This document shows, piece by piece, positions 52,193 through 64,000 of a DNA stretch of 64,000 nucleotides. The position numbers and the translations under genes were made by a program. Below the pieces are notes generated by a model. It was not told the DNA's origin. It searched no databases and was given only the letters and a program-made list of their open reading frames with translations. This DNA is from Candidatus Eiseniibacteriota bacterium (GTDB taxonomy: Bacteria > Arandabacterota > Arandabacteria > Arandabacterales > Arandabacteraceae), in assembly GCA_043810925.1 (NCBI GenBank), contig JBDRNT010000171.1, positions 8,466 to 72,465 of the forward strand, read 5' to 3'. The stretch's first letter is position 1; each line of letters begins with the position of its first letter.

Positions 52193-53113
52193 TCAATTGC
52201 GGGTGAGTTTCAGGAGAGGGATCAGGGAGTCGGTGACGTGATGAAGTTCTGCGTGCGGAAGCGTCCGTCTGATTCGGCCCCGGAAGAGCCTTGCAAGCGC
52301 CGGATCGCGGAACATCCCGCCTGATACCACGACCCTGAAGCGCGTCCCGAGACCGGTCTTCGTCTTCACGGCCAGTACCATTTCCATGAGGTCACGCGCT
52401 GCCTCTCTCACCAATGACCTTGCAAATGGATCTCCAGCGGTATAAGCCTCAAGGGCTATTCTCGCCAACCCGGCTATCCGGTCGCGCTCCGGCGGCAGGA
52501 ACCTACGGGGGACATCCTTAAGTTCGATACCGTATCGCTCGCAGAGGAGTCTCACCGTGCCATTGACCGCTTCAGTACCATCGTAAGCCCCTAACGCAAC
52601 CCCGAGCACGTCAAGACCCATTCTGAAACCACTGCCCCGATCCAGGTAACCTCCCCGGCCGCCAACTCTGGCTTTCATCACACGTCCGCGCCGGTGCTTC
52701 GCGCCGGCACACACGCTGCCCGTACCGGCGATGAGGACTATGCCGTCATGCTCGCTGAGGAAATACTCGGTCATCGCATCAAGATCGCTCAGTACCCTGA
52801 CACGGGGACGTGTCGACCGGGATTTGATAACTCCACCGAGAATACGCCTGCAGGCTGCGGCGACTCCGGGATCACCCGCCCCAGCGACGGCCGCGCATGC
52901 ATAGATCCGGACACCCCCGGCGCCGAGCCGGTCAAGAAGCGGAATCACGAGCGTCCGAACCCGCTCCTCGAATACTGAGTAACCTACATCAACCGGATTG
53001 AGACCGGACCGGATGACCCGCACGGAGATCGCACCTTCGTGGTAGAGGGCTGCTTTGCCGGTCGAACCGCCGGCTTCGATGGCGAGTGAAGTCCGGAGGG
53101 ATTCCCTGCTCAC
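52193..53113 (-). CDS. BadF/BadG/BcrA/BcrD-type kinase (GlcNAc/MurNAc kinase-like)
   Basis: AIEAGGST, AVAGAG, SDL, VLIAGTGS, GG.GGYLDRGSG, SGGMF. Confidence 0.8.
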   Translation of the reverse strand: MSRESLRTSLAIEAGGSTGKAALYHEGAISVRVIRSGLNPVDVGYSVFEERVRTLVIPLLDRLGAGGVRIYACAAVAGAGDPGVAAACRRILGGVIKSRSTRPRVRVLSDLDAMTEYFLSEHDGIVLIAGTGSVCAGAKHRRGRVMKARVGGRGGYLDRGSGFRMGLDVLGVALGAYDGTEAVNGTVRLLCERYGIELKDVPRRFLPPERDRIAGLARIALEAYTAGDPFARSLVREAARDLMEMVLAVKTKTGLGTRFRVVVSGGMFRDPALARLFRGRIRRTLPHAELHHVTDSLIPLLKLTRN

Positions 53114-54225
53114 TGCTCCTGCACCGCCGGTTCGTAGGCTTCAACCAGCGATGAGTAGGTCAGGGCATAGTCACTGTTGAAGATCGCGACGCCGCGGACC
53201 CCGGACTCGCGGATAGCCTCGAGTTGCTCCGAGAATATGCTGTCTGTAAACCCTTCAAGGTAGGGTCCCATGCCGGCGATAACCCTTTCAGGCCCGGCAA
53301 GAGCCGAATAAGCGCTCAGACGCTCCTCAAACGCCTCCAGGCTCACGGTGTAGATCATAGGCACAAGGAAGTCCACGTACCCTCTCGTCACCCATTCGAT
53401 CCCGTCCTGGAAGTGATACTGCCTGCCCGCCTCGATCTTCTGCCAGACCGCCGCCGAAACCGCTACCCCAGGCCTTGACGTTCTCGCCGCGTCAGCAAGC
53501 CTTCCCACGAACTCACTTAGGTTCTCCCTCCTCCAGTCGGCATAAGTGATCTGGGTGTCCCTGAGGGCGCTGATATAGCCGGCCTTGCTGCGCGAGTCAT
53601 ACGAAAAAGAGGAATCCGGGAACCTCACATGGTCAAGGTGCAGACCGTCAATCTCGTACCTGCCGACGAGATCGGTCACCACGTCTTCCACATGTTGCTG
53701 TGCGCTGGGATGCGTGGGGCTTAAGAATGCGTAGTTATACCTGGTTTCCGATTTGAGTAGCGACATTGGCTCGCCGTCACGGTCTACGGCGATCCAGTTG
53801 GGGTGTACCCGCATTACATGCGAAGGCACAGTCTTCGGGGGCGGGCTGCCCTCATCGGAGACGGGCCAGGCGGAAAAGACGTTTATCCAGGCATGCACCT
53901 CCATCCCCCGCGCGTGGCCTTCTTCGATTGCAGCCCCGAGTGGGTCCCACCCCGGATAAACCCCAAGAGTGTCCGTAAGTACAGCCGACCACGGTTCGTA
54001 GGCCGACCTGTACAGCGCATCACAGGCGCCTCTGGCCTGGAAGAACACCATGTTGATGCCGAGGGGTTCAAGGTTCTCAAACAAATCTCTCAGGTCGGAC
54101 TTGCTCTCGAACCCCCATCTGGTTACCCAGACGGCCTTAACACGACCGGTTTCGCCCGACTCCGACCGACCAATAACGCATAGGAGAATGAGTACGAACA
54201 CCGGGAGTTGTCTGAAGCACTTCAT
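53110..54225 (-). CDS. Secreted glycoside hydrolase-like 10 (GHL10/YddW-DigH-like)
   Basis: Signal peptide; KAVWV, FFQARG..DALY.S..EPW, WDPL, EVHAWIN, YEIDGLHLD..R, PMIY. Confidence 0.85.
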   Translation of the reverse strand: MKCFRQLPVFVLILLCVIGRSESGETGRVKAVWVTRWGFESKSDLRDLFENLEPLGINMVFFQARGACDALYRSAYEPWSAVLTDTLGVYPGWDPLGAAIEEGHARGMEVHAWINVFSAWPVSDEGSPPPKTVPSHVMRVHPNWIAVDRDGEPMSLLKSETRYNYAFLSPTHPSAQQHVEDVVTDLVGRYEIDGLHLDHVRFPDSSFSYDSRSKAGYISALRDTQITYADWRRENLSEFVGRLADAARTSRPGVAVSAAVWQKIEAGRQYHFQDGIEWVTRGYVDFLVPMIYTVSLEAFEERLSAYSALAGPERVIAGMGPYLEGFTDSIFSEQLEAIRESGVRGVAIFNSDYALTYSSLVEAYEPAVQEQ

Positions 54226-54274
54226 GGGGATATTTCTACATCAGGGTGGCCCGGTCTTTCAAGCAAATAAAACA

Positions 54275-54352
54275 TGGGTGGGGTCAGTTGTTCTCACGGG
54301 CTTGGCACGGAAGCCCGTTGGGACGCTCCTATCCAGCTTATGACCCCACCCA
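54275..54352. repeat. Nested palindrome in a divergent intergenic region
   Basis: Perfect 12-bp IR tgggtggggtca/tgaccccaccca enclosing an inner stem acgggctt/aagcccgt. Confidence 0.55.
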
Positions 54353-54474
54353 ACCACAGGACCACAGGGGAAGGAGCTTGTCGCCTCGGTACTGCTAAGA
54401 GCGTTGCTCCTTCCAACAGTATTTAGATGAGTATCATACCCTGTGGATTCACCTGAAGCAACAGAATAATTCGA

Positions 54475-54503
54475 TTGACTGACTTCAGCAAGCGCTATAG
54501 GCT
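54475..54503 (+). promoter_or_regulatory. Sigma70-type promoter
   Basis: TTGACT-17 nt-TAGGCT upstream of SD gggagg and ATG 54527. Confidence 0.55.
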
Positions 54504-54526
54504 ACGGGCGAAGGGAGGATTTGGAG

Positions 54527-54787
54527 ATGGCTGAAACCAAGATCGGGGAGATAGTTAAGTTCTTTGCGAAACCTTCGGTTGCAGCAATCGTGATCACCGC
54601 CGATGGCCTGAACGTCGGAGACACCATCCGTATAAAGGGCCACACAACCGATTTCACCCAGACGGTGGATTCGATGCAGATCGACAATCAGTCGGTCACT
54701 GAGGCCAAAGTCGGTGACGATGTGGGGATCAAGGTCACCGACAGGACAAGGCCTGGAGACGTGGCCTACAAGGTGACCGGCGGCTAG
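54527..54787 (+). CDS. Small translation-elongation-factor-like beta-barrel protein (EF-Tu domain II / U32 C-terminal-like)
   Basis: IGEIVKFFAKPSVA, VGDTIRIKGHTTDF.Q.VDSMQI, GDDVGIKV..R.RPGD. Confidence 0.8.
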   Translation: MAETKIGEIVKFFAKPSVAAIVITADGLNVGDTIRIKGHTTDFTQTVDSMQIDNQSVTEAKVGDDVGIKVTDRTRPGDVAYKVTGG

Positions 54788-54929
54788 CAACGTCCTTCGC
54801 ATCGGGAAAGCCTTGCCGGGCCTGCCTATTTTGGGCTTCAGGGCGCTACGGAGCCCCGGAATCGCACTTTTCTAGGCATAGACCGGTCCCGCACAGTGTC
54901 CATCGGGCTCGCGCACGCAAGATTTTCAC

Positions 54930-54958
54930 TTGACCCCTTCTGCCCTATTTGGTAGGGT
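54930..54958 (+). promoter_or_regulatory. Sigma70-type promoter with extended -10
   Basis: TTGACC-17 nt-TAGGGT, with TG at the extended -10 position. Confidence 0.5.
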
Positions 54959-55074
54959 AAACACAAATCATGTCGACAAGGAGAATGAGTTCGAGAAGGA
55001 GGTGAAGGGATACAAACAAGCGACTCCGCGAAACTTTCGATATTCAAGCCAATCTGCTGTAAGGGGGGTATGAA

Positions 55075-55671
55075 ATGAAGAGGTTCTTGTTTTTGGCTAT
55101 GGTCTTAGCGGCTTCACTCATTCTGGCCTCATGTGCAGAGGAGAAGTCGGTGTGGGAGCCCGCGGTAGAGCAGTCGACTTTCACCGAAATGGATCAGGCG
55201 CTGCCCGGTGTTAGAGAGGCCATGATGGATCTCGACGAAACGATCAACAAGCGCATAACCTCCAAGAAGTACAAGGAAGAGGCGCTTGAGCAGTACAGGA
55301 TGATGACCGATTTCATTGATATCCTTCAGTTCTACTATCTCCCGATACTCAACGCCAGAGCCCACATAGCGCGCGCCTACAGGGAAATCGACCAGGGCAT
55401 GTACTCGGAGGCCTCAGACGATATCAGGAAGGCTGTTGACAACATCAACAAGGCTGCCCTCAAGTCTACTGAAAGCACCAAGACGGGCTTTGACGTAGTC
55501 AAGGAAGGCCTGATGCAGGTCTCGCAGATATCGGATCAGAGTTCCGAGGCCAGCAAGACACGGCTAGCCAACGCGGCGAAGCAGCTCAACATGCTTATCG
55601 AAAAGATAAAGCCTGTGATTATGCTCACCGAAGAGGGAGAATCTCTGGTAGACGGACAGATCGCACCCTAG
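55075..55671 (+). CDS. Alpha-helical lipoprotein of unknown function (possibly YfdX-like)
   Basis: MKR plus hydrophobic core and lipobox LAS-C; own promoter and terminator. Confidence 0.7.
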   Translation: MKRFLFLAMVLAASLILASCAEEKSVWEPAVEQSTFTEMDQALPGVREAMMDLDETINKRITSKKYKEEALEQYRMMTDFIDILQFYYLPILNARAHIARAYREIDQGMYSEASDDIRKAVDNINKAALKSTESTKTGFDVVKEGLMQVSQISDQSSEASKTRLANAAKQLNMLIEKIKPVIMLTEEGESLVDGQIAP

Positions 55672-55689
55672 ATTTCAGGGAAAACTCAG

Positions 55690-55719
55690 GAGCCCGGATG
55701 ATGCTATCCGGGCTCTTTT
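55690..55719 (+). terminator. Intrinsic terminator
   Basis: 10-bp stem gagcccggat/atccgggctc with a 6-nt loop, followed by TTTT; overlaps the convergent stop codon. Confidence 0.65.
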
Positions 55720-57200
55720 ATCTGGAATCTTCTGTCTGAAGCGGCTTCTGGCTCGGCAGTCATGGTGCCCGAACTGCCGTAAACGAAGAACGACTTCCGG
55801 GATCTCACGCCGCGCGGAAACCTCCAGTAAGACCAGGGCAGGCTGAGAAGACGTCTTATGGCCGTAATCCGGAAGTGCTCCGGGACATCCTCAAGAAACT
55901 CGCTGCCCTGAATTTCGAGGAGTTCAAGGCTTCGCTTGTGCTTCTCCGGGTCCTCCATTGCTCTCTTTCGGAAGATCACGCTGAGGATCGAGGCCACCCG
56001 GCGACCGAATGAGAGCCTCTTGCCCACCGCAAAGTATATCCCCTTGACGGCAGGCGAGTGAAAGACCAGATCCATATCGATCTCAGCCACCCATGTGAGA
56101 ATCTGATCCGTTGCAAGGTATCGTCTGAGAACAGTATCATGGATCTGCTGGGCGCGTTTGCGGGTCAAGTCCTCATACCTGAACCACAGCTCCCTGTAAT
56201 GCCAGTCCGTTACGAGCCACTCTATCCTGCCTCTTCTTTCGCCGTCGGCCCGTATCCAGATCTCCAGTCGTTCCCAGTCCTTCTCCCAGAACTTTATGAG
56301 CTCCGCCGGGGCGAGCGTCACGTACCGCCAAACCCAGTAATATCTACCCTCCAACCAGTAGGGCTCGTGGCCTGGCTTATACGGGAAACGCTGGTCCTGG
56401 TCGTCGTTTATGTAGAGGTAGACAGCCGGTGGCAGTGATCTGGGTACGAAGAACCACTCCACAAGGTACAGGACACAAGCCGTGCCGACCATGGCTATCA
56501 CGAAACCCTCGAAGCCCTGGCCTATCCTTACGATCATCCTCAGTGCGATAAGCGGTAGCGGGGCCACTGCTGCTGTCAGAAGATCATCGAACATGAACCA
56601 CAGGATCAGCAGGACGATTGGATACGACAACACACCGAGATAAGGGACGATCACGCTCTCGGCCCCCAGTAGACTGAACACAGGCCCGATAAGTACACCG
56701 TAGCCCAGCGCTACAAGTGATGCCAGGAAGACCTTGTACCGGGCGAAGAACATGCTCGAGGAGCCCCTTATCCTGAGCGGATTGACGACATCGGAGGCCA
56801 CGCACTCGCCGTCCGAATAGACATTAGCAAGCCCGGCCTGCGTGGGCGTGACCTTGAGCGAGTGCTGAAGCAGCAGATTTCTCATTGTGTCACGATCATA
56901 GGCCGCCGGCCGCGCCTTTTTCCGGCCCCTGGCCAGTCGAAGCAGGCCACGAAAGCTCACGGTGAAAGGCTTCATGAGCGAGGCTATTATGAAGTAGCCG
57001 AGTTTGGGGAGGGCAGCTGTCGGTCTATTGAGGATCTTCCGGAAAAGCTCCAGCGAGGGTCCGGACCTGTCGAGTGCCTCGGGGTTGACGATATCCCTCA
57101 GGTTAAGGACGCTCGCCCAGTAGTCACAGAAGAGGAACGGGCCATCGAAATCCCTGTCACGAACTTCCTGCCTGGTATCGAATGAGTCGTGCTTGTCCAT
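55704..57200 (-). CDS. Hypothetical membrane protein (central TM bundle, Trp-rich C-terminal domain)
   Basis: Long ORF, ATG 57200 with SD gggag; about 4-5 hydrophobic segments; no family recognised with confidence. Confidence 0.7.
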   Translation of the reverse strand: MDKHDSFDTRQEVRDRDFDGPFLFCDYWASVLNLRDIVNPEALDRSGPSLELFRKILNRPTAALPKLGYFIIASLMKPFTVSFRGLLRLARGRKKARPAAYDRDTMRNLLLQHSLKVTPTQAGLANVYSDGECVASDVVNPLRIRGSSSMFFARYKVFLASLVALGYGVLIGPVFSLLGAESVIVPYLGVLSYPIVLLILWFMFDDLLTAAVAPLPLIALRMIVRIGQGFEGFVIAMVGTACVLYLVEWFFVPRSLPPAVYLYINDDQDQRFPYKPGHEPYWLEGRYYWVWRYVTLAPAELIKFWEKDWERLEIWIRADGERRGRIEWLVTDWHYRELWFRYEDLTRKRAQQIHDTVLRRYLATDQILTWVAEIDMDLVFHSPAVKGIYFAVGKRLSFGRRVASILSVIFRKRAMEDPEKHKRSLELLEIQGSEFLEDVPEHFRITAIRRLLSLPWSYWRFPRGVRSRKSFFVYGSSGTMTAEPEAASDRRFQIKEPG

Positions 57201-57463
57201 AAATTCAAATTCTCCCGACTGAATAGTACCACTGCCGCATATGGCCGTCAACTCCTGTGCGTGGCAGCAGTCTGCAGTCACCGGCCAGCCCGGATTCGCG
57301 CTAACCCCGTGCCGCTGGGATGCCGATACAACAACCGAGCGTGGAGGGGTCGACCGAGGTCGACGCCCGGAAATGCAGGGGATGAAGGCTGGGCTATCCC
57401 GGAGGTCAACAATCCTCCCACCAAAAACCAGCTTTCATCCCTCATTCTTATTTATGGGCCGGA

Positions 57464-57532
57464 CGCTGGTGCGCCTTTCGCTTCGCTTGCTCAGAGAAGG
57501 CATTCACTTGCGGCCCAAAAGGGGCACCAGCG
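57464..57532. repeat. Palindromic intergenic repeat, family B copy 2
   Basis: cgctggtgcgcctttcg..caaaaggggcaccagcg stem; core shared with 18349-18422 on the opposite strand; followed by atttttt. Confidence 0.65.
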
Positions 57533-57541
57533 ATTTTTTAA

Positions 57542-57651
57542 GAATTCGGTGCCAGCTTAGGAATTACCATTACGAATTACCACACTCTCGGTCCAAGCCG
57601 TCCGGTGCCCGGCGTAATTTGTAAGCTGGCACCAAATTCCCACCAAATTCC
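57542..57651. repeat. REPIN-like inverted repeat, family C copy 1
   Basis: gaattcggtgccagcttaggaattac (57542-57567) versus gtaatttgtaagctggcaccaaattc (57614-57639): 23/26 complementary; arm ends locally duplicated (gaattacca x2, caccaaattcc x2). Confidence 0.7.
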
Positions 57652-57652
57652 G

Positions 57653-57681
57653 TTTACTCGCCGTGGTGTCTGTGGTAGCAT
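57653..57681 (+). promoter_or_regulatory. Sigma70-type promoter, probably giving a leaderless mRNA
   Basis: TTTACT-17 nt-TAGCAT with TG extension; ATG 57689 lies 7 nt after the -10 box; no SD. Confidence 0.5.
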
Positions 57682-57688
57682 TGCCGCC

Positions 57689-58912
57689 ATGGACACCTCA
57701 GTGCGCCCACCGGCCGGTAGCAAGGTTCCGATCGTGGTCGTCCTGGCCATCATGCTTCTCGGTTTGACCGTTCCCGCCCTCGGTGTCATCCCACCCGCTG
57801 CAGAGGTCTCGGATACGCCTGATGACTGGGGCACAGGGCTTACGGTGACCTGGGACCGGCCCGCTGCGGGAGATGGTGTAACAGGTTACGAGATCTGGAG
57901 ACTCAAGGTCGAGAAAGGCAGGAAGGTCACAGATCCCGCCTTTGCCGATACGGTTCCGGCTTCGGATGTACTTGCGTCGGCGGGCTGGGAGATGGCCGGT
58001 GATGCCGATCTTGAGGATACGGTCTGGGTCGACTCGGGTCTCGAGACAGGACAGGAATACACCTATGTGGTGGTCGCCCTCACCGGCGGGCCTCAGGCAC
58101 CCTCGCCACCTACGTCACCCGAGACACCACGGCGCCAGATCATAAGAAACCAGCGAATCAACATTCTCGTTGCCGTCGCGCTCTTCATGCTGACGGTGGT
58201 GGTCCTCGTTGAACGCGCGAGAAGAGGGGCAAAGCTCTTCATACGGAGGATTGCGGGGCTTGAGGCCGTGGAGGAAGCTGTTGGGAGGTCTACGGAGATG
58301 GGCCGTCCGATTCTGTATGTCCCCGGTCTCGATCCCATGGACGAGGTCGGAACCGTCGCTGCAATAAACATACTCGGGCAGGTAGCCAAGAAAGCCGGTG
58401 AATACGATACCAGACTCATAGTCCCCAACCGGGATCCCATAGTCATGGCCGTCGCCCAACAGGTCGTCAGGGAGTCGTATTCGGCCGTGGGAAAACCCCA
58501 TCTTTACCGTGATGAGGACGTCTACTACGTGACCTTCAGTCAGTTCGGATTCGCAGCCGCTGTAGCGGGGCTCATGATGAGGGAGCGGCCGGCGACCAAC
58601 TTCTTCATCGGCCGGTTCTATGCCGAATCGCTTGTGCTTGCCGAGACCGGCAACGCAACGGGAGCGATCCAGATAGCCGGCACCGATTCGGATGCCCAGC
58701 TTCCGTTCTTTATAAGCGCGTGTGATTATACCTTGATGGGTGAGGAGCTCTATGCCGGGAGTGTATACCTCTCGCGTGAACCGCTTCTCCTCGGCGCACT
58801 CAAGAGCCAGGATTACGCAAAGGCCCTGATAATAATAGCGATCTTCATCGGGATCGTACTCTATATCGTGAGTCCCGACGTGGCGGAACAGTTCAAAGCT
58901 GTGTTCAACTAA
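57689..58912 (+). CDS. Membrane protein: signal peptide, fibronectin type III domain, TM, conserved unknown domain (recalled as DUF6754-like), TM
   Basis: FN3 pattern LTVTW..GYEIWR..WVDSGLETGQEYTYVVVA; IRRIAGLEAVEEAVGRSTEMGRP; QIAGT, QLPFF...CDYTLMGEELYA. Confidence 0.75.
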   Translation: MDTSVRPPAGSKVPIVVVLAIMLLGLTVPALGVIPPAAEVSDTPDDWGTGLTVTWDRPAAGDGVTGYEIWRLKVEKGRKVTDPAFADTVPASDVLASAGWEMAGDADLEDTVWVDSGLETGQEYTYVVVALTGGPQAPSPPTSPETPRRQIIRNQRINILVAVALFMLTVVVLVERARRGAKLFIRRIAGLEAVEEAVGRSTEMGRPILYVPGLDPMDEVGTVAAINILGQVAKKAGEYDTRLIVPNRDPIVMAVAQQVVRESYSAVGKPHLYRDEDVYYVTFSQFGFAAAVAGLMMRERPATNFFIGRFYAESLVLAETGNATGAIQIAGTDSDAQLPFFISACDYTLMGEELYAGSVYLSREPLLLGALKSQDYAKALIIIAIFIGIVLYIVSPDVAEQFKAVFN

Positions 58913-58921
58913 GGAGCCGGA

Positions 58922-59563
58922 TTGAAGTCAAGAGGACCCATCATACTGGCATTCGTCGTGGGAATGCTGATGATGATACAGTTCTTCACGCCCAATCCCT
59001 TCTTCCTTAGGCTTTACAACATAGTACTCGACTGGAAGCAGGTAGTTCTCGGCTGCACCTTCATACTCGGTACGTGGAGTCTTGTCCGGTACCACGTTAA
59101 GAAGATACAGCGCCGCCAGGAGAACTGGCAGTACAGCTACGTGACCCTTGCCGGTCTTACCGTGACCGTGGGGTCTGCGCTTATCTGGAAGACCGTCACA
59201 GGACCCTATCCCTGGCTTTTTAACAACATCCAGGTACCCATGCAGTCGACGATGTTCTCACTGCTGGCGTTCTTCGTCGCGTCGGCCTCCTACCGGGCCT
59301 TCAGGGCGAGAACGGTGCATGCGACGCTTCTGCTCGTGGCGGGGGCGCTTGTTATGCTCGGTCGTGTGCCGATCGGGGCCTATTTCTCAGGTTCCGTGCT
59401 GGGAGTCAAGATCTCGCTCGTGGAGATGTCGGACTGGTTGCTCAACGTACCCAATCTCGCGGCCAAACGAGGCATCATGATGGGCGTCGGGCTTGGTATG
59501 ACGGCCACAGCGATAAAGATCATCCTCGGCATCGAGAAGACCTATCTCGGGAGGTCGGACTGA
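58922..59563 (+). CDS. Hypothetical ~6-TM membrane protein
   Basis: TTG start after SD aaggag; TMFSLLAFFVASASYRAFR; stop overlaps the next start (TGATG). Confidence 0.8.
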   Translation: MKSRGPIILAFVVGMLMMIQFFTPNPFFLRLYNIVLDWKQVVLGCTFILGTWSLVRYHVKKIQRRQENWQYSYVTLAGLTVTVGSALIWKTVTGPYPWLFNNIQVPMQSTMFSLLAFFVASASYRAFRARTVHATLLLVAGALVMLGRVPIGAYFSGSVLGVKISLVEMSDWLLNVPNLAAKRGIMMGVGLGMTATAIKIILGIEKTYLGRSD

Positions 59564-60402
59564 TGGCCTTCTACGACAGGTTGATGTCCATAGACAGACG
59601 CATAATCTTCCTGTCGGTGGGGCTTGCCGTTGCTATCCCGCTTATAGTCCCGCTGAATTTTCCAGTTCAGATCTCAGAGGAAGCCGAGAGTTTCTATAGA
59701 GAGATGGAGGCCCTCAAGGAGGGGGATATAATACTCCTTGCCTTCGATTACGAGGGCGATGTCATGGCCGAGCTCAATCCCATGACCATAGCGGTCCTGA
59801 AGCACACCTTCCCGAGGAACATAAAGGTCGTGGCCCTCACCACATACGCAGGCGGCACGGGTATCGCCGAGGGGATCCTGAATGAGGCCGCCGAAGTCTA
59901 CGGAAAGGCTTATGGCGTCGACTACGTCTTCCTCGGCTATAACCCCGACTGGTCAGGCACGATCCTCAGACTCGGTGAGAGTTTCAAGGGGACCTACCCC
60001 ACCGACCAGTACGGCACGAACACAAACGAGATCCCCATTATGCAGGAAGTCGAGACCTACGATGATGTCGCCATGATCGTATCGATTGCCGGGAGTGCTC
60101 TTTCCGAATACTGGGCGATCTGGGCCGGTGGGCGCTACGGGGTCAAGGTGATCTCCGGCAATACGGCGATCCAGGCGGTCCTGATATACCCGTACTACCA
60201 GGCAGGCCAAATACCGGGTTTCCTGGGGGGGCTTAAAGGCGCGGCCGAATATGAGAAACTCGTCGGTGTGCCCGGACTGGGAATCCGCGGAATGGATGCC
60301 CAGTCGGTGGCTCATGCTCTCATGGTCGTGTTCATTATCGTTGGGAACATCGGTTACGTCTTTTCCAGACGAGCAAAGAAAGCGGAACAGCAGAAAGGAT
60401 GA
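59563..60402 (+). CDS. Hypothetical membrane protein (TM, alpha/beta domain, TM); probable paralog of the C-terminal part of 57689-58912
   Basis: YGVDYVFLGY, PYYQAGQ..G.LGGLKGAAEYE, MDAQSVAH plus TM. Confidence 0.8.
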   Translation: MAFYDRLMSIDRRIIFLSVGLAVAIPLIVPLNFPVQISEEAESFYREMEALKEGDIILLAFDYEGDVMAELNPMTIAVLKHTFPRNIKVVALTTYAGGTGIAEGILNEAAEVYGKAYGVDYVFLGYNPDWSGTILRLGESFKGTYPTDQYGTNTNEIPIMQEVETYDDVAMIVSIAGSALSEYWAIWAGGRYGVKVISGNTAIQAVLIYPYYQAGQIPGFLGGLKGAAEYEKLVGVPGLGIRGMDAQSVAHALMVVFIIVGNIGYVFSRRAKKAEQQKG

Positions 60403-60410
60403 GCATCTGA

Positions 60411-61037
60411 ATGAATATCGCAAGTGATCCGGGAGTCTGGGTTGCGGGGATATTCACGATAGCGATATTCTCGTTCCTTTATAAGGATAACCCCTTCTAC
60501 AGATTCGCCGAGCACCTGCTGGTAGGGGTTTCTGCCGGCTACTACCTTGTCCAGTATTTCTTCTCGGCAACGTACAAGAAGTTCTATGTGCCCGTTTTCA
60601 TAAACAAGGACTATATCCTCATCATCGGTGGCATCCTCGGCATAATGATGTTTGCCCGACTGTTCAGAAAGGCGGAGTGGGTCTCGCGCTACCCCGTCGC
60701 ATTCTATGTAGCCGCCTGGGCCGGCTACGTGATCCCATCTTACATACATGTAAGGATCCTCCAGCAGGCCAAAAGCACCATGTTTAACCCCGTCGGGATG
60801 CCGCTCAAGGACCTCCTGTCGGCGTGCGTGCTCTTCGTGGGGGTTGCATCAACCCTTATCTACTTCTACTTCTCGGCCGAGCACAAGGGCGGGCTCAGGG
60901 TGGTATCCAAAATCGGTATCACCTTCCTCATGATCGGCTTCGGCGCAACCTTCGGATACAACGTGATGGGCAGGATAAGCCTCCTGATCGGTCGTTTTCA
61001 GTTCCTCTTCACCGACTGGCTGGGCCTTATCCGCTGA
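60411..61037 (+). CDS. Hypothetical ~6-TM membrane protein
   Basis: IFSFLYKDNPFYRFAEHLLVGVSAGY; YFYFS.EH; FLMIGFGATFGYNVMGR. Confidence 0.8.
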   Translation: MNIASDPGVWVAGIFTIAIFSFLYKDNPFYRFAEHLLVGVSAGYYLVQYFFSATYKKFYVPVFINKDYILIIGGILGIMMFARLFRKAEWVSRYPVAFYVAAWAGYVIPSYIHVRILQQAKSTMFNPVGMPLKDLLSACVLFVGVASTLIYFYFSAEHKGGLRVVSKIGITFLMIGFGATFGYNVMGRISLLIGRFQFLFTDWLGLIR

Positions 61038-61066
61038 CATGGGGCCGGGGACGGCACACATTCAAA

Positions 61067-61095
61067 TTGACACCGCACCGGGCAATTGGTACGCT
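61067..61095 (+). promoter_or_regulatory. Sigma70-type promoter with extended -10
   Basis: TTGACA-17 nt-TACGCT, with TG at the extended -10 position. Confidence 0.6.
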
Positions 61096-61123
61096 CCACC
61101 CAGCATGAACCTGGGGGTGGATC

Positions 61124-61777
61124 ATGGAGATTATTGGCTTTAAGGTAATACTCGGACTTCTCTTTGTAGTCTTTTCGTGTGTCGCGTTTCTCACGATGCT
61201 GCATCTCCTGGGCACACCTCATACGTCTCGCGATAAACTCCTGAGACTCATCCATAGGCTGAGCGGCGGAGCCGCGGTGACCCTTTACGTGGTGCTCGCA
61301 GTCTCCTGCATTGCGGGGATGGACCGGGGCGGCCCTGAAATCTCGCCCAGGGCGGCAATCCATATTGCTTTCGCGGCACTCTTCATACCGTTTGTGCTCG
61401 TCAAAATCGTCATTGTCGAGAAGTATCCCGAGCTCAGAAATCGCCTCTTTACAATCGGTACCGTGCTCTTCGGTCTGGTCTTCGTGATCTTCTTTACATC
61501 GGCGACCTCAAGTTTCGTCGACGGCACCGGGAAGACCCGGACGGTGGCGTCCCGGGAATCCGAGGAGTCTGTGTCGCTCGGCAAGGAGCTCTTCGTTACC
61601 AAATGCGCCAAGTGCCATCGCCTGGACATAGCGCTCTCGGCAAGAAAGTCCCCCGGGGAGTGGCGGGAGACGGTCAGTGTCATGCGGCAGAAAGACCGGG
61701 ACTGGATAAGCGCACTGGAGGCGGAGAGAATCACGGAGTTCCTTGTATTTCTGGGAGGCCAGCCAGGGAATGATTAG
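61124..61777 (+). CDS. Membrane-anchored monoheme c-type cytochrome (4 TM plus CxxCH)
   Basis: Four hydrophobic helices with His residues; GKELFVTKCAKCH; distal W..TV..M. Confidence 0.8.
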   Translation: MEIIGFKVILGLLFVVFSCVAFLTMLHLLGTPHTSRDKLLRLIHRLSGGAAVTLYVVLAVSCIAGMDRGGPEISPRAAIHIAFAALFIPFVLVKIVIVEKYPELRNRLFTIGTVLFGLVFVIFFTSATSSFVDGTGKTRTVASRESEESVSLGKELFVTKCAKCHRLDIALSARKSPGEWRETVSVMRQKDRDWISALEAERITEFLVFLGGQPGND

Positions 61778-63770
61778 GATCGACCGGCGGGAGCTGCAGA
61801 ACATCGAAACGTCACTCAGCCGCGAATGGCTCGAGACCAATGGGCTCGGCGGGTACGCTTCTTCAACGGTGCTGGGCGTTAATACCAGAAAACATCACGG
61901 CTTGCTCGTTGCGGCGCTCGACCCGCCTGTGGAGAGGTCTGTACTCGTATCTCGCACAGACGAGACCCTGATAATCGGGGGAAAACGGTTTGAGCTCTCA
62001 TCAAGCGAGTACGAGGGAACCATACATCCCGACGGCCATCGTTATCTGGCCGAGGTGAGACTCGACCCCTATCCTGTCTTCACGTATGTCATAAGCGGGT
62101 GCAGGCTTGAGAAGTCCATCTTTATGCCCCGGGGTGAGAACACGACCTATGTCGGCTATACACTGGAGTGCTCGTCCGACGGGCCGAGGAGAAGCCAGGT
62201 CGTACTCGAGGTGCGTCCGATAATAGCCTGTCGAGATCACAACGCTTTGATGCGGGAGAATCAGGATTTCAATACGGCCTTCGAAGCCGGGCGGGGCAAC
62301 GTCACGCTGAAGCCCTATGAGCATATGCCGGCTTTCAATATCTCCTTCGACGACGGCCGGTTTGAACAGGCCGGCTACTGGTACCACAACTATCATTACA
62401 GGAGGGAGAAGGAGAGCGGTTACGACGCAAGTGAGGATCTGTATTCACCCGGAAGACTAGTGATCCCGTTTACTGAGACCAAGACCATCTGGCTTGCGTT
62501 CTCGACCGAGCAGGACGCCCTGAAGGATATCGAATACAGGAAGATCGGCGAGATCGAGAGACGCAAGAAGCTGAGCGAGGGCACAGCGGCGACGGGCGAA
62601 CTGGCAAGGTATCTGCGTGCAGCTGCCGATGCGTTTATCGTCAACCGTGGAAGTGGCGGGCGCACGATCGTGGCGGGTTATCCCTGGTTTACCGACTGGG
62701 GACGGGACACGATGATCTCTCTCCCCGGTCTCACGCTGGCAACAGGCCGCTACGAGGATGCCCGAAACATAATCACGACGTTTCTGGACAACATGAAGGA
62801 CGGTTTGATCCCCAACCATTTCCCCGAGTCTTCTTCCGAGGCTCTCTATAATACGATTGATGCAACGTTGTGGCTCTTCGAAGCAGCGAGGAAGTACTAT
62901 GACTGCACATCCGACGGGGATTTTATCGCACGCATCCTTCCGAGTCTGAGAGAAGCGATAGGATATCACCTCACGGGAACCATGTATGGGATTCATGCTT
63001 GCGATGACGGGTTGCTCGAGGGCGGTGTCGAGGGCGTACAACTCACATGGATGGACGCCAAGGTCGGTGACCGGGTCATAACCGCCCGGATCGGAAAAGC
63101 TGTCGAGATCAACGCTCTCTGGTATAACGCCCTCAGGATAACGGCACAGTTCTGCGCGGACTTCGGGGGACTCGCGGAGGAGAGCAGATACTCCCATCTG
63201 GCGCGCACGGCCTTTCAGAGCTTCAACGCCCAATTCTGGAACGAAGATAAGAAGTGCTTGTATGACGTGATCAGAGGCGATCACAAAGACGACCGGCTGA
63301 GACCGAATCAGATATTCACGATGAGCCTGACCTATCCGGTGCTTGACCATTCAAGATGGAGATCAGTCGTCCAGATGGTCGAGCGGGAACTACTGACTCC
63401 CTTTGGACTTCGTACCCTCTCCCCTCTTGATCCCGGCTACAAGGGAAAATACGGCGGCGATCTGGTGACCCGGGATGAGGCGTATCATCAGGGAACGGTC
63501 TGGCCCTGGTTGATGGGACCTTACATAACCGCATACCTTAAAGCTTACGGCCGCTCGGGTCAGACGGTCGCACGCTGTCTTAACCTGCTCGATGCCCTGA
63601 CCAGACACCTTTCCGAAGCGGGGATCGGGAGCATATCCGAAATCTTCGACGGTGAATCACCGCACAAACCCGGCGGGTGCATAGCCCAGGCCTGGAGTGT
63701 CGCCGAGCTCCTCCGCACCCTGACCGAAGATCTTTTCATCACCACCAGCCAACCCCAGAACATCCGGTGA
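61770..63770 (+). CDS. Glycogen debranching enzyme (amylo-alpha-1,6-glucosidase, archaeal-type GDE)
   Basis: REWLETNGLGGYASST, AGYPWFTDWGRDTMISLPGL, TWMDAK, GKAVEINALW, RPNQ, YHQGTVWPW, QAWSVAE. Confidence 0.93.
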   Translation: MIRIDRRELQNIETSLSREWLETNGLGGYASSTVLGVNTRKHHGLLVAALDPPVERSVLVSRTDETLIIGGKRFELSSSEYEGTIHPDGHRYLAEVRLDPYPVFTYVISGCRLEKSIFMPRGENTTYVGYTLECSSDGPRRSQVVLEVRPIIACRDHNALMRENQDFNTAFEAGRGNVTLKPYEHMPAFNISFDDGRFEQAGYWYHNYHYRREKESGYDASEDLYSPGRLVIPFTETKTIWLAFSTEQDALKDIEYRKIGEIERRKKLSEGTAATGELARYLRAAADAFIVNRGSGGRTIVAGYPWFTDWGRDTMISLPGLTLATGRYEDARNIITTFLDNMKDGLIPNHFPESSSEALYNTIDATLWLFEAARKYYDCTSDGDFIARILPSLREAIGYHLTGTMYGIHACDDGLLEGGVEGVQLTWMDAKVGDRVITARIGKAVEINALWYNALRITAQFCADFGGLAEESRYSHLARTAFQSFNAQFWNEDKKCLYDVIRGDHKDDRLRPNQIFTMSLTYPVLDHSRWRSVVQMVERELLTPFGLRTLSPLDPGYKGKYGGDLVTRDEAYHQGTVWPWLMGPYITAYLKAYGRSGQTVARCLNLLDALTRHLSEAGIGSISEIFDGESPHKPGGCIAQAWSVAELLRTLTEDLFITTSQPQNIR

Positions 63771-63775
63771 CCCTG

Positions 63776-63869
63776 ATTCGGTGACAGTTCACGAATTATC
63801 CATCGTGCGAAGGGTTATAGAAGTGCAGTCGGCCCCGCCGGCGGTGTTAATTCGTAAGCTGTCACGAAT
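63776..63869. repeat. REPIN-like inverted repeat, family C copy 2
   Basis: attcggtgacagttcacgaatta..taattcgtaagctgtcacgaat; arms resemble those of 57542-57639. Confidence 0.65.
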
Positions 63870-64000
63870 GGCACTAACTTAAGACCAGATCAAGTCATGC
63901 TCGTGGCTTACGCTTTGTGACCCCTTTTGTGGTGGCGTCGAGTATCTTGAGGGATAGTTCTCGCATCTGTCTGGTGATTTCCTCCATTTTTCGATGATTC

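Follow-up and report, generated by a model that had tools for sequence, protein, structure and literature searches.

Four co-directional genes, here called A, B, C and D, occupy positions 57689-61037 of a 64,000-nucleotide stretch of DNA from a Candidatus Eiseniibacteriota bacterium (the window), and encode membrane proteins that can be set beside several described systems. The Rnf and Na+-NQR complexes, in the layout generally known for Rnf, contain two six-transmembrane (6-TM) subunits of ~200 aa that are opposite in orientation, along with soluble domains anchored by TM segments at either membrane face; the module shares this arrangement, and its neighbouring gene c1 appears to encode an RnfC_N/NqrA_N-type barrel. 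B and D differ from the Rnf/Na+-NQR subunits in matching neither each other nor the family PF02508, and the ATPase linked to the module is GlmL-like, not redox. ATP-binding cassette (ABC) importers that share an ATPase (MsiK-type) and group II energy-coupling factor (ECF) transporters are known for serving several substrate-specific modules with one cytoplasmic energiser, and each of the present modules similarly has two 6-TM subunits of ~210 aa and a membrane-anchored outer α/β domain. In contrast to ABC transporters, A-D have no ABC_tran match and no Walker A motif, and the candidate energiser, the product of the linked gene c3, has an actin/Hsp70-type fold. The GlmL/MutL accessory proteins of B12-dependent mutases resemble c3, which matches the Pfam family MutL over positions 1-450 but has ~120 extra C-terminal residues, and whose gene belongs to an operon for membrane proteins and does not adjoin a mutase gene.

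The four genes form a conserved, jointly duplicating unit whose order is kept across many phyla, and its recurrence as a unit, within one genome and across phyla, lies far beyond chance. No solved structure or curated family that we found covers B, C, D or c1, and A alone of the four subunits has a Pfam family, which is a domain of unknown function (DUF). We strongly infer that the products assemble into one complex of ~16 TM helices, with one Rossmann-like domain inside (A), a second outside (C) and a variable outer surface. The full statement, that A-D are subunits of one inner-membrane complex and act as a translocation module that works with shared c1 and c3, is a possible reading that we put forward tentatively. 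The module and its parts in the window are given below.

57689-58912, + strand: gene A, 407 aa; open reading frame (ORF) and translation read as signal peptide, fibronectin type III (fn3) domain, TM, predicted cytoplasmic Rossmann-like domain, TM (DUF6754)
57725-57787, + strand: N-terminal hydrophobic segment of A, residues 13-33, read as a signal peptide from family-averaged hydropathy
57827-58117, + strand: fn3 domain of A, residues 47-143, predicted extracytoplasmic (Pfam PF00041)
58130-58885, + strand: DUF6754 region of A, residues 148-399, consisting of TM (155-175), a six-stranded α/β domain and TM (376-397) (Pfam, hydropathy, AlphaFold2)
58922-59563, + strand: gene B, 213 aa, TTG start; six TM segments, predicted N-in and C-in
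59563-60402, + strand: gene C, 279 aa; TM (12-34), predicted extracytoplasmic Rossmann-like domain (35-245), TM (246-266), basic tail predicted to be cytoplasmic
60411-61037, + strand: gene D, 208 aa; about six TM segments, predicted N-out, internal repeat

A conserved and jointly duplicating four-gene unit

The window belongs to contig C171 of the genome designated G000, in which tblastn and phmmer found A-B-C-D five times (contigs C171, C69, C12, C28 and C81) at 35-45% identity. A further A gene, of 370 aa, is an orphan without B, C or D on contig C161 (locus L113, 6401-7513). Arranged tail to tail with it is a gene whose product starts like a response-regulator receiver, as read from the N-terminus with no family search, and beyond this gene is one for a 756-aa membrane protein.

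Loci in other genomes were collected with C alone as the query and one genome per species, and 80 were kept of 153 confirmed stretches. The complete A-B-C-D set, on one strand and in that order, was present in 69 of the 80; a contig end cuts ten (L075 and L095 among them, ending ~750 nt after C), and one, L057 on a candidate division TA06 contig, has the changed order A-B-D-C. By record title, the loci come from Candidatus Eisenbacteria (closest to the window), Zixibacteria, WOR-3, Latescibacterota, TA06 and Ignavibacteria, with further loci from UBP7/Planctomycetales, Marinimicrobia, Cloacimonadota, Lentisphaeria and Armatimonadota. The co-occurrence in other genomes, on which a preliminary description of this DNA had made its proposal depend, is accordingly a feature of many phyla. 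Tandem modules are present in G021 and G036, and a profile of C retrieved 5564 of 1.84 billion cluster representatives at E<=1e-3, or 4508 at E<=1e-10. All 18 genomes examined from the window's phylum gave a match to DUF6754, as did none of 14 well-known genomes taken as controls, and the A-domain profile matched in 81 of 81 genomes of the phylum to which G036 belongs, mostly in 4-6 copies that are often in tandem.

On contig C28 of the same genome (locus L111, 5402-12524), the unit is part of an eight-gene operon, c24-c2-c3-c1-A-B-C-D, with all genes on the same strand. The genes upstream of A-D are the following.

G000:C28, strand of A-D: c24, 156 aa, membrane protein
G000:C28, strand of A-D: c2, 132 aa, hydrophobic
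G000:C28, strand of A-D: c3, 613 aa, Pfam MutL (GlmL family)
G000:C28, strand of A-D: c1, 377 aa, no Pfam match at default settings

The match of c3 to Pfam MutL is strong (E 1.3e-126, 423.5 bits against a cut-off of 27). The protein scores below the NCBIfam GlmL cut-offs (223.7 vs 475 for the equivalog and 159.6 vs 204.05 for the subfamily) and therefore represents a divergent branch of the GlmL family. Among relatives of c1, the N-terminus matched RnfC_N in 11 of 22 (best E 1e-7), Biotin_lipoyl in 11 of 22 and NQRA_N in 3 of 22, and the C-terminus matched KOW in 16 of 22. The ESM Atlas gave c1 weak Biotin_lipoyl, RnfC_N and KOW labels, and a comparison with PDB sequence profiles gave nothing better than E 0.04.

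The c1-c3 operon usually lies directly upstream of one module per genome. The order c3-c1-c2-A-B-C-D was found in 19 fetched Marinimicrobia-type loci, with four more (cut, or with an extra ORF) consistent with it; L054 has c24-c2-c3-c1-A-B-C-D, and c1-A-B-C-D is seen in L056 and L062-L065. Of 41 genomes, the 25 in which c1 was found are exactly those that carry A, the other 16 giving no c1, and c3 was found in 24 of the 25, the exception being G033 (100% complete); G026, which is without A, has a weak match to c3 at 33% identity. The counts lack independence, since 18 of the 25 A-positive genomes share a phylum; the other seven represent seven different families. Linkage within 5 kb of an A gene was seen for c1 in 17 of the 25 genomes; in three the genes are unlinked on long contigs, and five assemblies are too fragmented. 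Both c1 and c3 are mostly single-copy, and modules number up to six per genome. A fused c3-c1 paralogue of 940-958 aa occurs alone in G039 and G007 (L114, 8083-10959, - strand; L115, 7416-10238, - strand), has no A-D genes nearby and matches an NqrA model with E 6e-5. The fusion ties c3 and c1 functionally.

Subunit families, folds and membrane topology

In A, DUF6754 (PF20539) is matched end to end by residues 148-399 (E 1.5e-114, 381.9 bits against a cut-off of 27, profile positions 2-253 of 257), with 19 invariant columns and a mean column identity of 49% over 54 sequences. The fn3 match at residues 47-143 is marginal (25.1 bits against a cut-off of 25, E 2.1e-5). NCBI names relatives of A 'DUF6754 domain-containing protein', a label without assigned function or solved structure that covers one of the four subunits, and no mention of DUF6754 or PF13941 was found in a limited, literal search of the literature that did not extend to supplementary files. 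Literature searches on GlmL, judged from their listings, yielded nothing pertinent. B, C and D matched no Pfam or NCBIfam family. Running Pfam over every aligned member of the three (alignments of 52-59 sequences) gave scattered sub-threshold matches only, and Pfam searches of long forms (eight long B or D, two long A) returned DUF6754 only. Searches of PDB sequence profiles with A, B, C and D produced 0 matches at E<=1, the ESM Atlas placed B in unnamed clusters only, and PADLOC matched none of A-D, c24, c2, c3 and c1 to a defence system. The author of the preliminary description knew of no characterised family of this kind, and Pfam, NCBIfam and PDB sequences indeed gave none except DUF6754 and fn3 on A. 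Its report of no ATPase, kinase or redox motif agrees with the searches of A-D, in which no ATPase, kinase or redox family of Pfam or NCBIfam matched and no Walker A, CxxCH or CxxC motif was present, each protein having 0-1 Cys.

The gene layout was reproduced as first described, with four tightly coupled genes, all co-directional, separated by 9, -1 and 8 nt (A/B, B/C and C/D). Shine-Dalgarno-like purine runs precede B, C and D. Gene A has an alternative longer GTG start at 57605, and its product opens with a charged n-region that leads into a hydrophobic stretch. The two promoters proposed as boundaries of the module, one its own and the other that of the next gene, were not confirmed: a sigma-70 scan of 57000-61400, with other promoter types outside its scope, gave no site on the + strand, and one site in all, on the - strand, vs 2.6 expected. 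Rfam gave no match at E<=1 in 54000-64000. Among sequencing runs, no RNA run containing the region was listed, and four DNA runs each contained only 5-7% of the words sampled. Family-averaged hydropathy gives B and D, each ~210 aa long, six hydrophobic segments apiece, in keeping with the ~6 TM segments attributed to them earlier.

The four genes had been proposed to comprise two paralogous pairs, A with C and B with D. The likeness in fold of A and C is upheld by AlphaFold2, and homology at the level of profiles is upheld for neither pair. The models of A residues 146-407 (predicted local distance difference test, pLDDT, 91.3) and of C (pLDDT 96.5) have an identical order of elements, namely a TM helix, one helix, six strand-helix (β-α) units and a long TM helix, so that the TM / α/β domain / TM layout noted previously is present in both. 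The three pairs of motifs that had been set side by side fall at equivalent elements of the models, in strand 3, in strand 6 with helix 6, and at the start of the last TM helix. BLASTP found nothing between A and C or between B and D, and hhalign with profiles of ~100 sequences gave <1% in all six pairings of A-D. Curated alignments raised the values to 1.4% for A/C and 1.2% for B/D, and A/C stood at 1.0% with the secondary structure of the models added, so that whole profiles of A and C span 0.8-1.4%. As a control, two Rnf-Nqr family proteins of the same genomes, a textbook inverted 6-TM pair, gave 99.8%. The best hhalign alignment of A with C is colinear with the structural elements and its score is not above that of shuffles; the sole segment to exceed them is the one entering the last TM helix (20.0 vs a maximum of 15.6 in 20 shuffles).

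A search of the PDB with Foldseek gave no match at E<=1e-3 for A or C, and wider fold searches returned generic Rossmann-like lists only, in which 1kjn_B is a common neighbour and 12 of the 50 listed entries appear for both. The nearest fold comparisons for A and C are MT0777 (PDB 1kjn) and generic Rossmann-like domains (RCK/KTN, SDR, GT-B halves, sirtuins). Judged by their models, the two domains are generic Rossmann-like folds that are alike by structure, with no significant sequence homology. Homology of B and D as an inverted paralogue pair appears unsupported, with hhalign values of 0.7-1.2%. D itself has an internal repeat, in which residues 36-89 (TM2-TM3) resemble residues 98-159 (TM4-TM5) with an hhalign probability of 73% (E 3e-5), compared with at most 3% in 30 shuffles; no internal repeat was found in B.

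The opposite topologies proposed earlier (A domain in and C domain out; B N-in and D N-out) are supported by three lines of evidence, namely charge bias, inserts and natural fusions. Counts of lysine plus arginine over ~100 sequences per family place the domain of A and the basic tail of C inside, and therefore the domain of C outside. The termini of B and its loops 2 and 4 are placed inside, as are loops 1, 3 and 5 of D, for which the signal is weaker. The outer loop of B after TM3 is an insertion hot-spot in relatives, with inserts at about residue 90: among 84 longer B forms, 82 have matches flanking the site and carry the insert directly after TM3, the remaining ones being P0007, a direct B-C fusion, and P0088, which matches only after the site. 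The Pfam families recorded in the B inserts are PF02018 (two forms), PF01839 with PF13517 (four forms) and WD40-type families (one form). PF02018 corresponds to CBM_4_9 and PF01839/PF13517 to FG-GAP/VCBS, and the source of one insert is named 'FG-GAP-like repeat'; domains of this kind are of extracellular type.

Fused forms bear on the relative placement of the subunits. In P0046, a C-like domain with two extra TM segments is embedded in the TM3-TM4 loop of B, and helix parity is kept only if the C domain is outside, which supports this location. The clean fusion in P0007 places the C-terminus of B and the N-terminus of C on the same side. P0297 and P0300, fusions of 598 aa that are 46% identical to each other, consist of C, one extra TM and D, and the tail of C and the N-terminus of D therefore lie on opposite sides. 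Together, these fusions link C both with B and with D. Four further candidates for C-D fusions (P0103, P0120, P0143 and P0151) were set aside as apparently frameshifted. We strongly infer from these features that the domain of A is cytoplasmic with its fn3 head outside, that the domain of C is outside, and that B is N-in and D N-out; B and D would then have opposite membrane orientations.

The other subunits also vary on their predicted outer side. Longer D forms (n=64) are mostly split between TM4 and TM5, with inserts that match PF12836 with PF06514, PF03934, PF01339 or PF00633 (12 forms), presumably of helix-hairpin-helix type, or EF-hand families (three forms). There are 330 longer A forms at E<=1e-3, and among the 120 listed ~40 carry a PQQ-type β-propeller and six carry fn3, always N-terminal to DUF6754. 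The fn3 head of A is replaced in relatives by larger heads, including β-propellers. In L063, L070 and other Marinimicrobia loci, B is ~342 aa long, with a ~75-aa soluble insert after TM3 and an extra hydrophobic stretch, A is ~287 aa long and lacks the fn3 head, and D is followed by genes for an ABC ATPase and an ABC-2 permease.

A possible translocation role and genomic context

Several properties of the module lead us to favour translocation: the several diverged paralogues per genome, the two 6-TM subunits, whose membrane segments contain or adjoin conserved polar residues, and the combination of a membrane-anchored outer domain with variable outer binding heads. In such a scheme B and D would form the membrane path, and C would be a membrane-anchored outer binding or gating domain. 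The variable outer surface would be made up of fn3 or β-propeller heads on A, CBM-, FG-GAP- or WD40-type domains in B, and helix-hairpin-helix or EF-hand domains in D. The conserved cytoplasmic domain of A may couple the module to cytoplasmic partners, for which the candidates are c1, with its RnfC_N-like barrel and KOW-like tail, and c3, the GlmL/MutL-family ATPase with a predicted actin/Hsp70 fold. Each of the 4-6 paralogous modules could then translocate a substrate of its own while all draw on a single energising or activating unit, in the way that one ATPase may serve several ABC importers. The preliminary description had proposed an undescribed transporter or channel. The module is undescribed as far as the searches reach, and transport is a tentative proposal that we consider possible.

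The substrate may, as a weak guess, be glycans or other polymers, because CBM-type domains are among the inserts and glycoside hydrolase genes are among the neighbours. The genes flanking the window's copy are the following.

53110-54225, - strand: GHL10 glycosyl-hydrolase-like gene
55704-57281, - strand: gene for a 525-aa membrane protein, divergent from and upstream of the module; four hydrophobic segments, no Pfam or NCBIfam family
61124-61777, + strand: gene for a DUF6529 membrane protein with a C-terminal CxxCH
61743-63770, + strand: gene for a glycogen-debranching-type enzyme (GDE_N + GDE_C)

The position of the 525-aa protein is conserved in nine orthologous Eisenbacteria-type loci. The motif in the DUF6529 protein suggests a membrane-anchored c-type cytochrome, and the end of its gene overlaps the start of the glycogen-debranching-type gene. 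Other copies of the module adjoin genes for an M28 peptidase and a transketolase, and the differing neighbours therefore provide no consistent substrate hint.

Alternative explanations and significance

An envelope-biogenesis or envelope-spanning structural machine, which exports, anchors or remodels a surface polymer or lipoprotein or tethers layers, and in which the GlmL-like protein serves as an assembly chaperone and not as an energiser, is an unlikely but serious alternative. The universal presence of the modules in the two phyla sampled (18/18 and 81/81 genomes) would suit such a function, and the domains decorating the outer side belong to scaffold or binding types (BamB-like PQQ propellers, fn3, FG-GAP, helix-hairpin-helix). 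ABC-2 type exporter genes lie 3' of D in many Marinimicrobia loci, and the GlmL family is known for accessory or reactivating factors rather than pumps. However, four to six diverged paralogous modules per genome are more typical of substrate-specific transporters or receptors, the flanking genes differ among the copies, and no known biogenesis family was matched.

The modules might also be multi-subunit surface receptors, whose outer domains sense ligands and whose A domain signals to c1/c3 in the way that chemoreceptors signal to one kinase. We regard this as quite unlikely: ~16 TM helices with conserved polar residues within TM segments seem excessive for a sensor, and A-D contain no known output domain, with no kinase, cyclase or HAMP-type family matched. 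Some features are nonetheless those of receptors, in that the outer heads are variable while the cytoplasmic domain of A is highly conserved (mean column identity given above), the modules are multi-copy while c1 and c3 are single-copy, and the orphan A gene on C161 adjoins the gene with the receiver-like N-terminus that precedes the 756-aa membrane protein.

A very distant, cofactor-poor relative or analogue of the ion-translocating Rnf/Nqr complexes would equate B/D with the inverted pair RnfA/RnfE, C with periplasmic RnfG/NqrC, A with the anchored cytoplasmic RnfB/NqrF and c1 with RnfC/NqrA. The architectures do run parallel when compared with the generally known subunit layout of Rnf/Nqr, and c1 adds the RnfC_N and NQRA_N matches at its N-terminus (11/22 and 3/22) and the NqrA match of the fused paralogue. 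D shares a motif of 14-15 residues with one Rnf-Nqr group at 14-15% probability. Behind this alignment is a short Asn-Pro motif after TM1 (D residues 23-37, 60477-60521) that is too short to interpret. Against kinship, PF02508 was unmatched at E<=0.1 in 52 B and 53 D members, and hhalign of B with Rnf-Nqr alignments gave <=0.4%, whereas one Rnf-Nqr group against another gave 99.8%. Conserved Cys and flavin or Fe-S motifs were not found, nor was an RnfD/NqrB-like subunit, and the genome has a canonical Rnf-Nqr pair elsewhere, on C72. As far as these comparisons can tell, the parallel is architectural only, with no test placing the subunits in the family, and we hold this explanation to be improbable. 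That A-D are four independent membrane proteins, merely co-transcribed and forming no complex, can practically be dismissed: the order is kept in 69/80 loci across phyla, the four genes duplicate together as a unit, and B-C and C-D fusions and a C-like domain embedded in B occur naturally.

The translocation module sketched above can be taken one step further. On the broadest view, A-D with c1, c3, c2 and c24 would represent a membrane machine of a new class, built of several paralogous 16-TM modules of two inverted halves (A+B in, C+D out) and one shared actin/Hsp70-fold GlmL-like ATPase that drives or activates them via a barrel-sandwich adaptor, and would be core equipment of Eisenbacteria and many mostly uncultured phyla, without a counterpart in model organisms. 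So far-reaching a statement is doubtful as a whole. Should the inverted halves be ancient duplicates, they would exemplify a rare form of inverted-topology evolution, one in which large soluble domains are carried to either face of the membrane. Energising of the modules by the GlmL-like ATPase, if it occurs, would amount to a new principle of coupling. For structural work, the natural fusions are ready-made constructs.

All genomes examined of two phyla contain the module, each with several copies, and it was not found in any of 14 model genomes; B, C, D and c1 are large families for which we found no Pfam model, solved structure or paper. Its carriers include Marinimicrobia, Cloacimonadota, Zixibacteria, WOR-3, Eisenbacteria and some Planctomycetota. 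The system thus marks a gap in what is understood of widespread environmental bacteria, be it of their cell envelope or of the way they handle nutrients.

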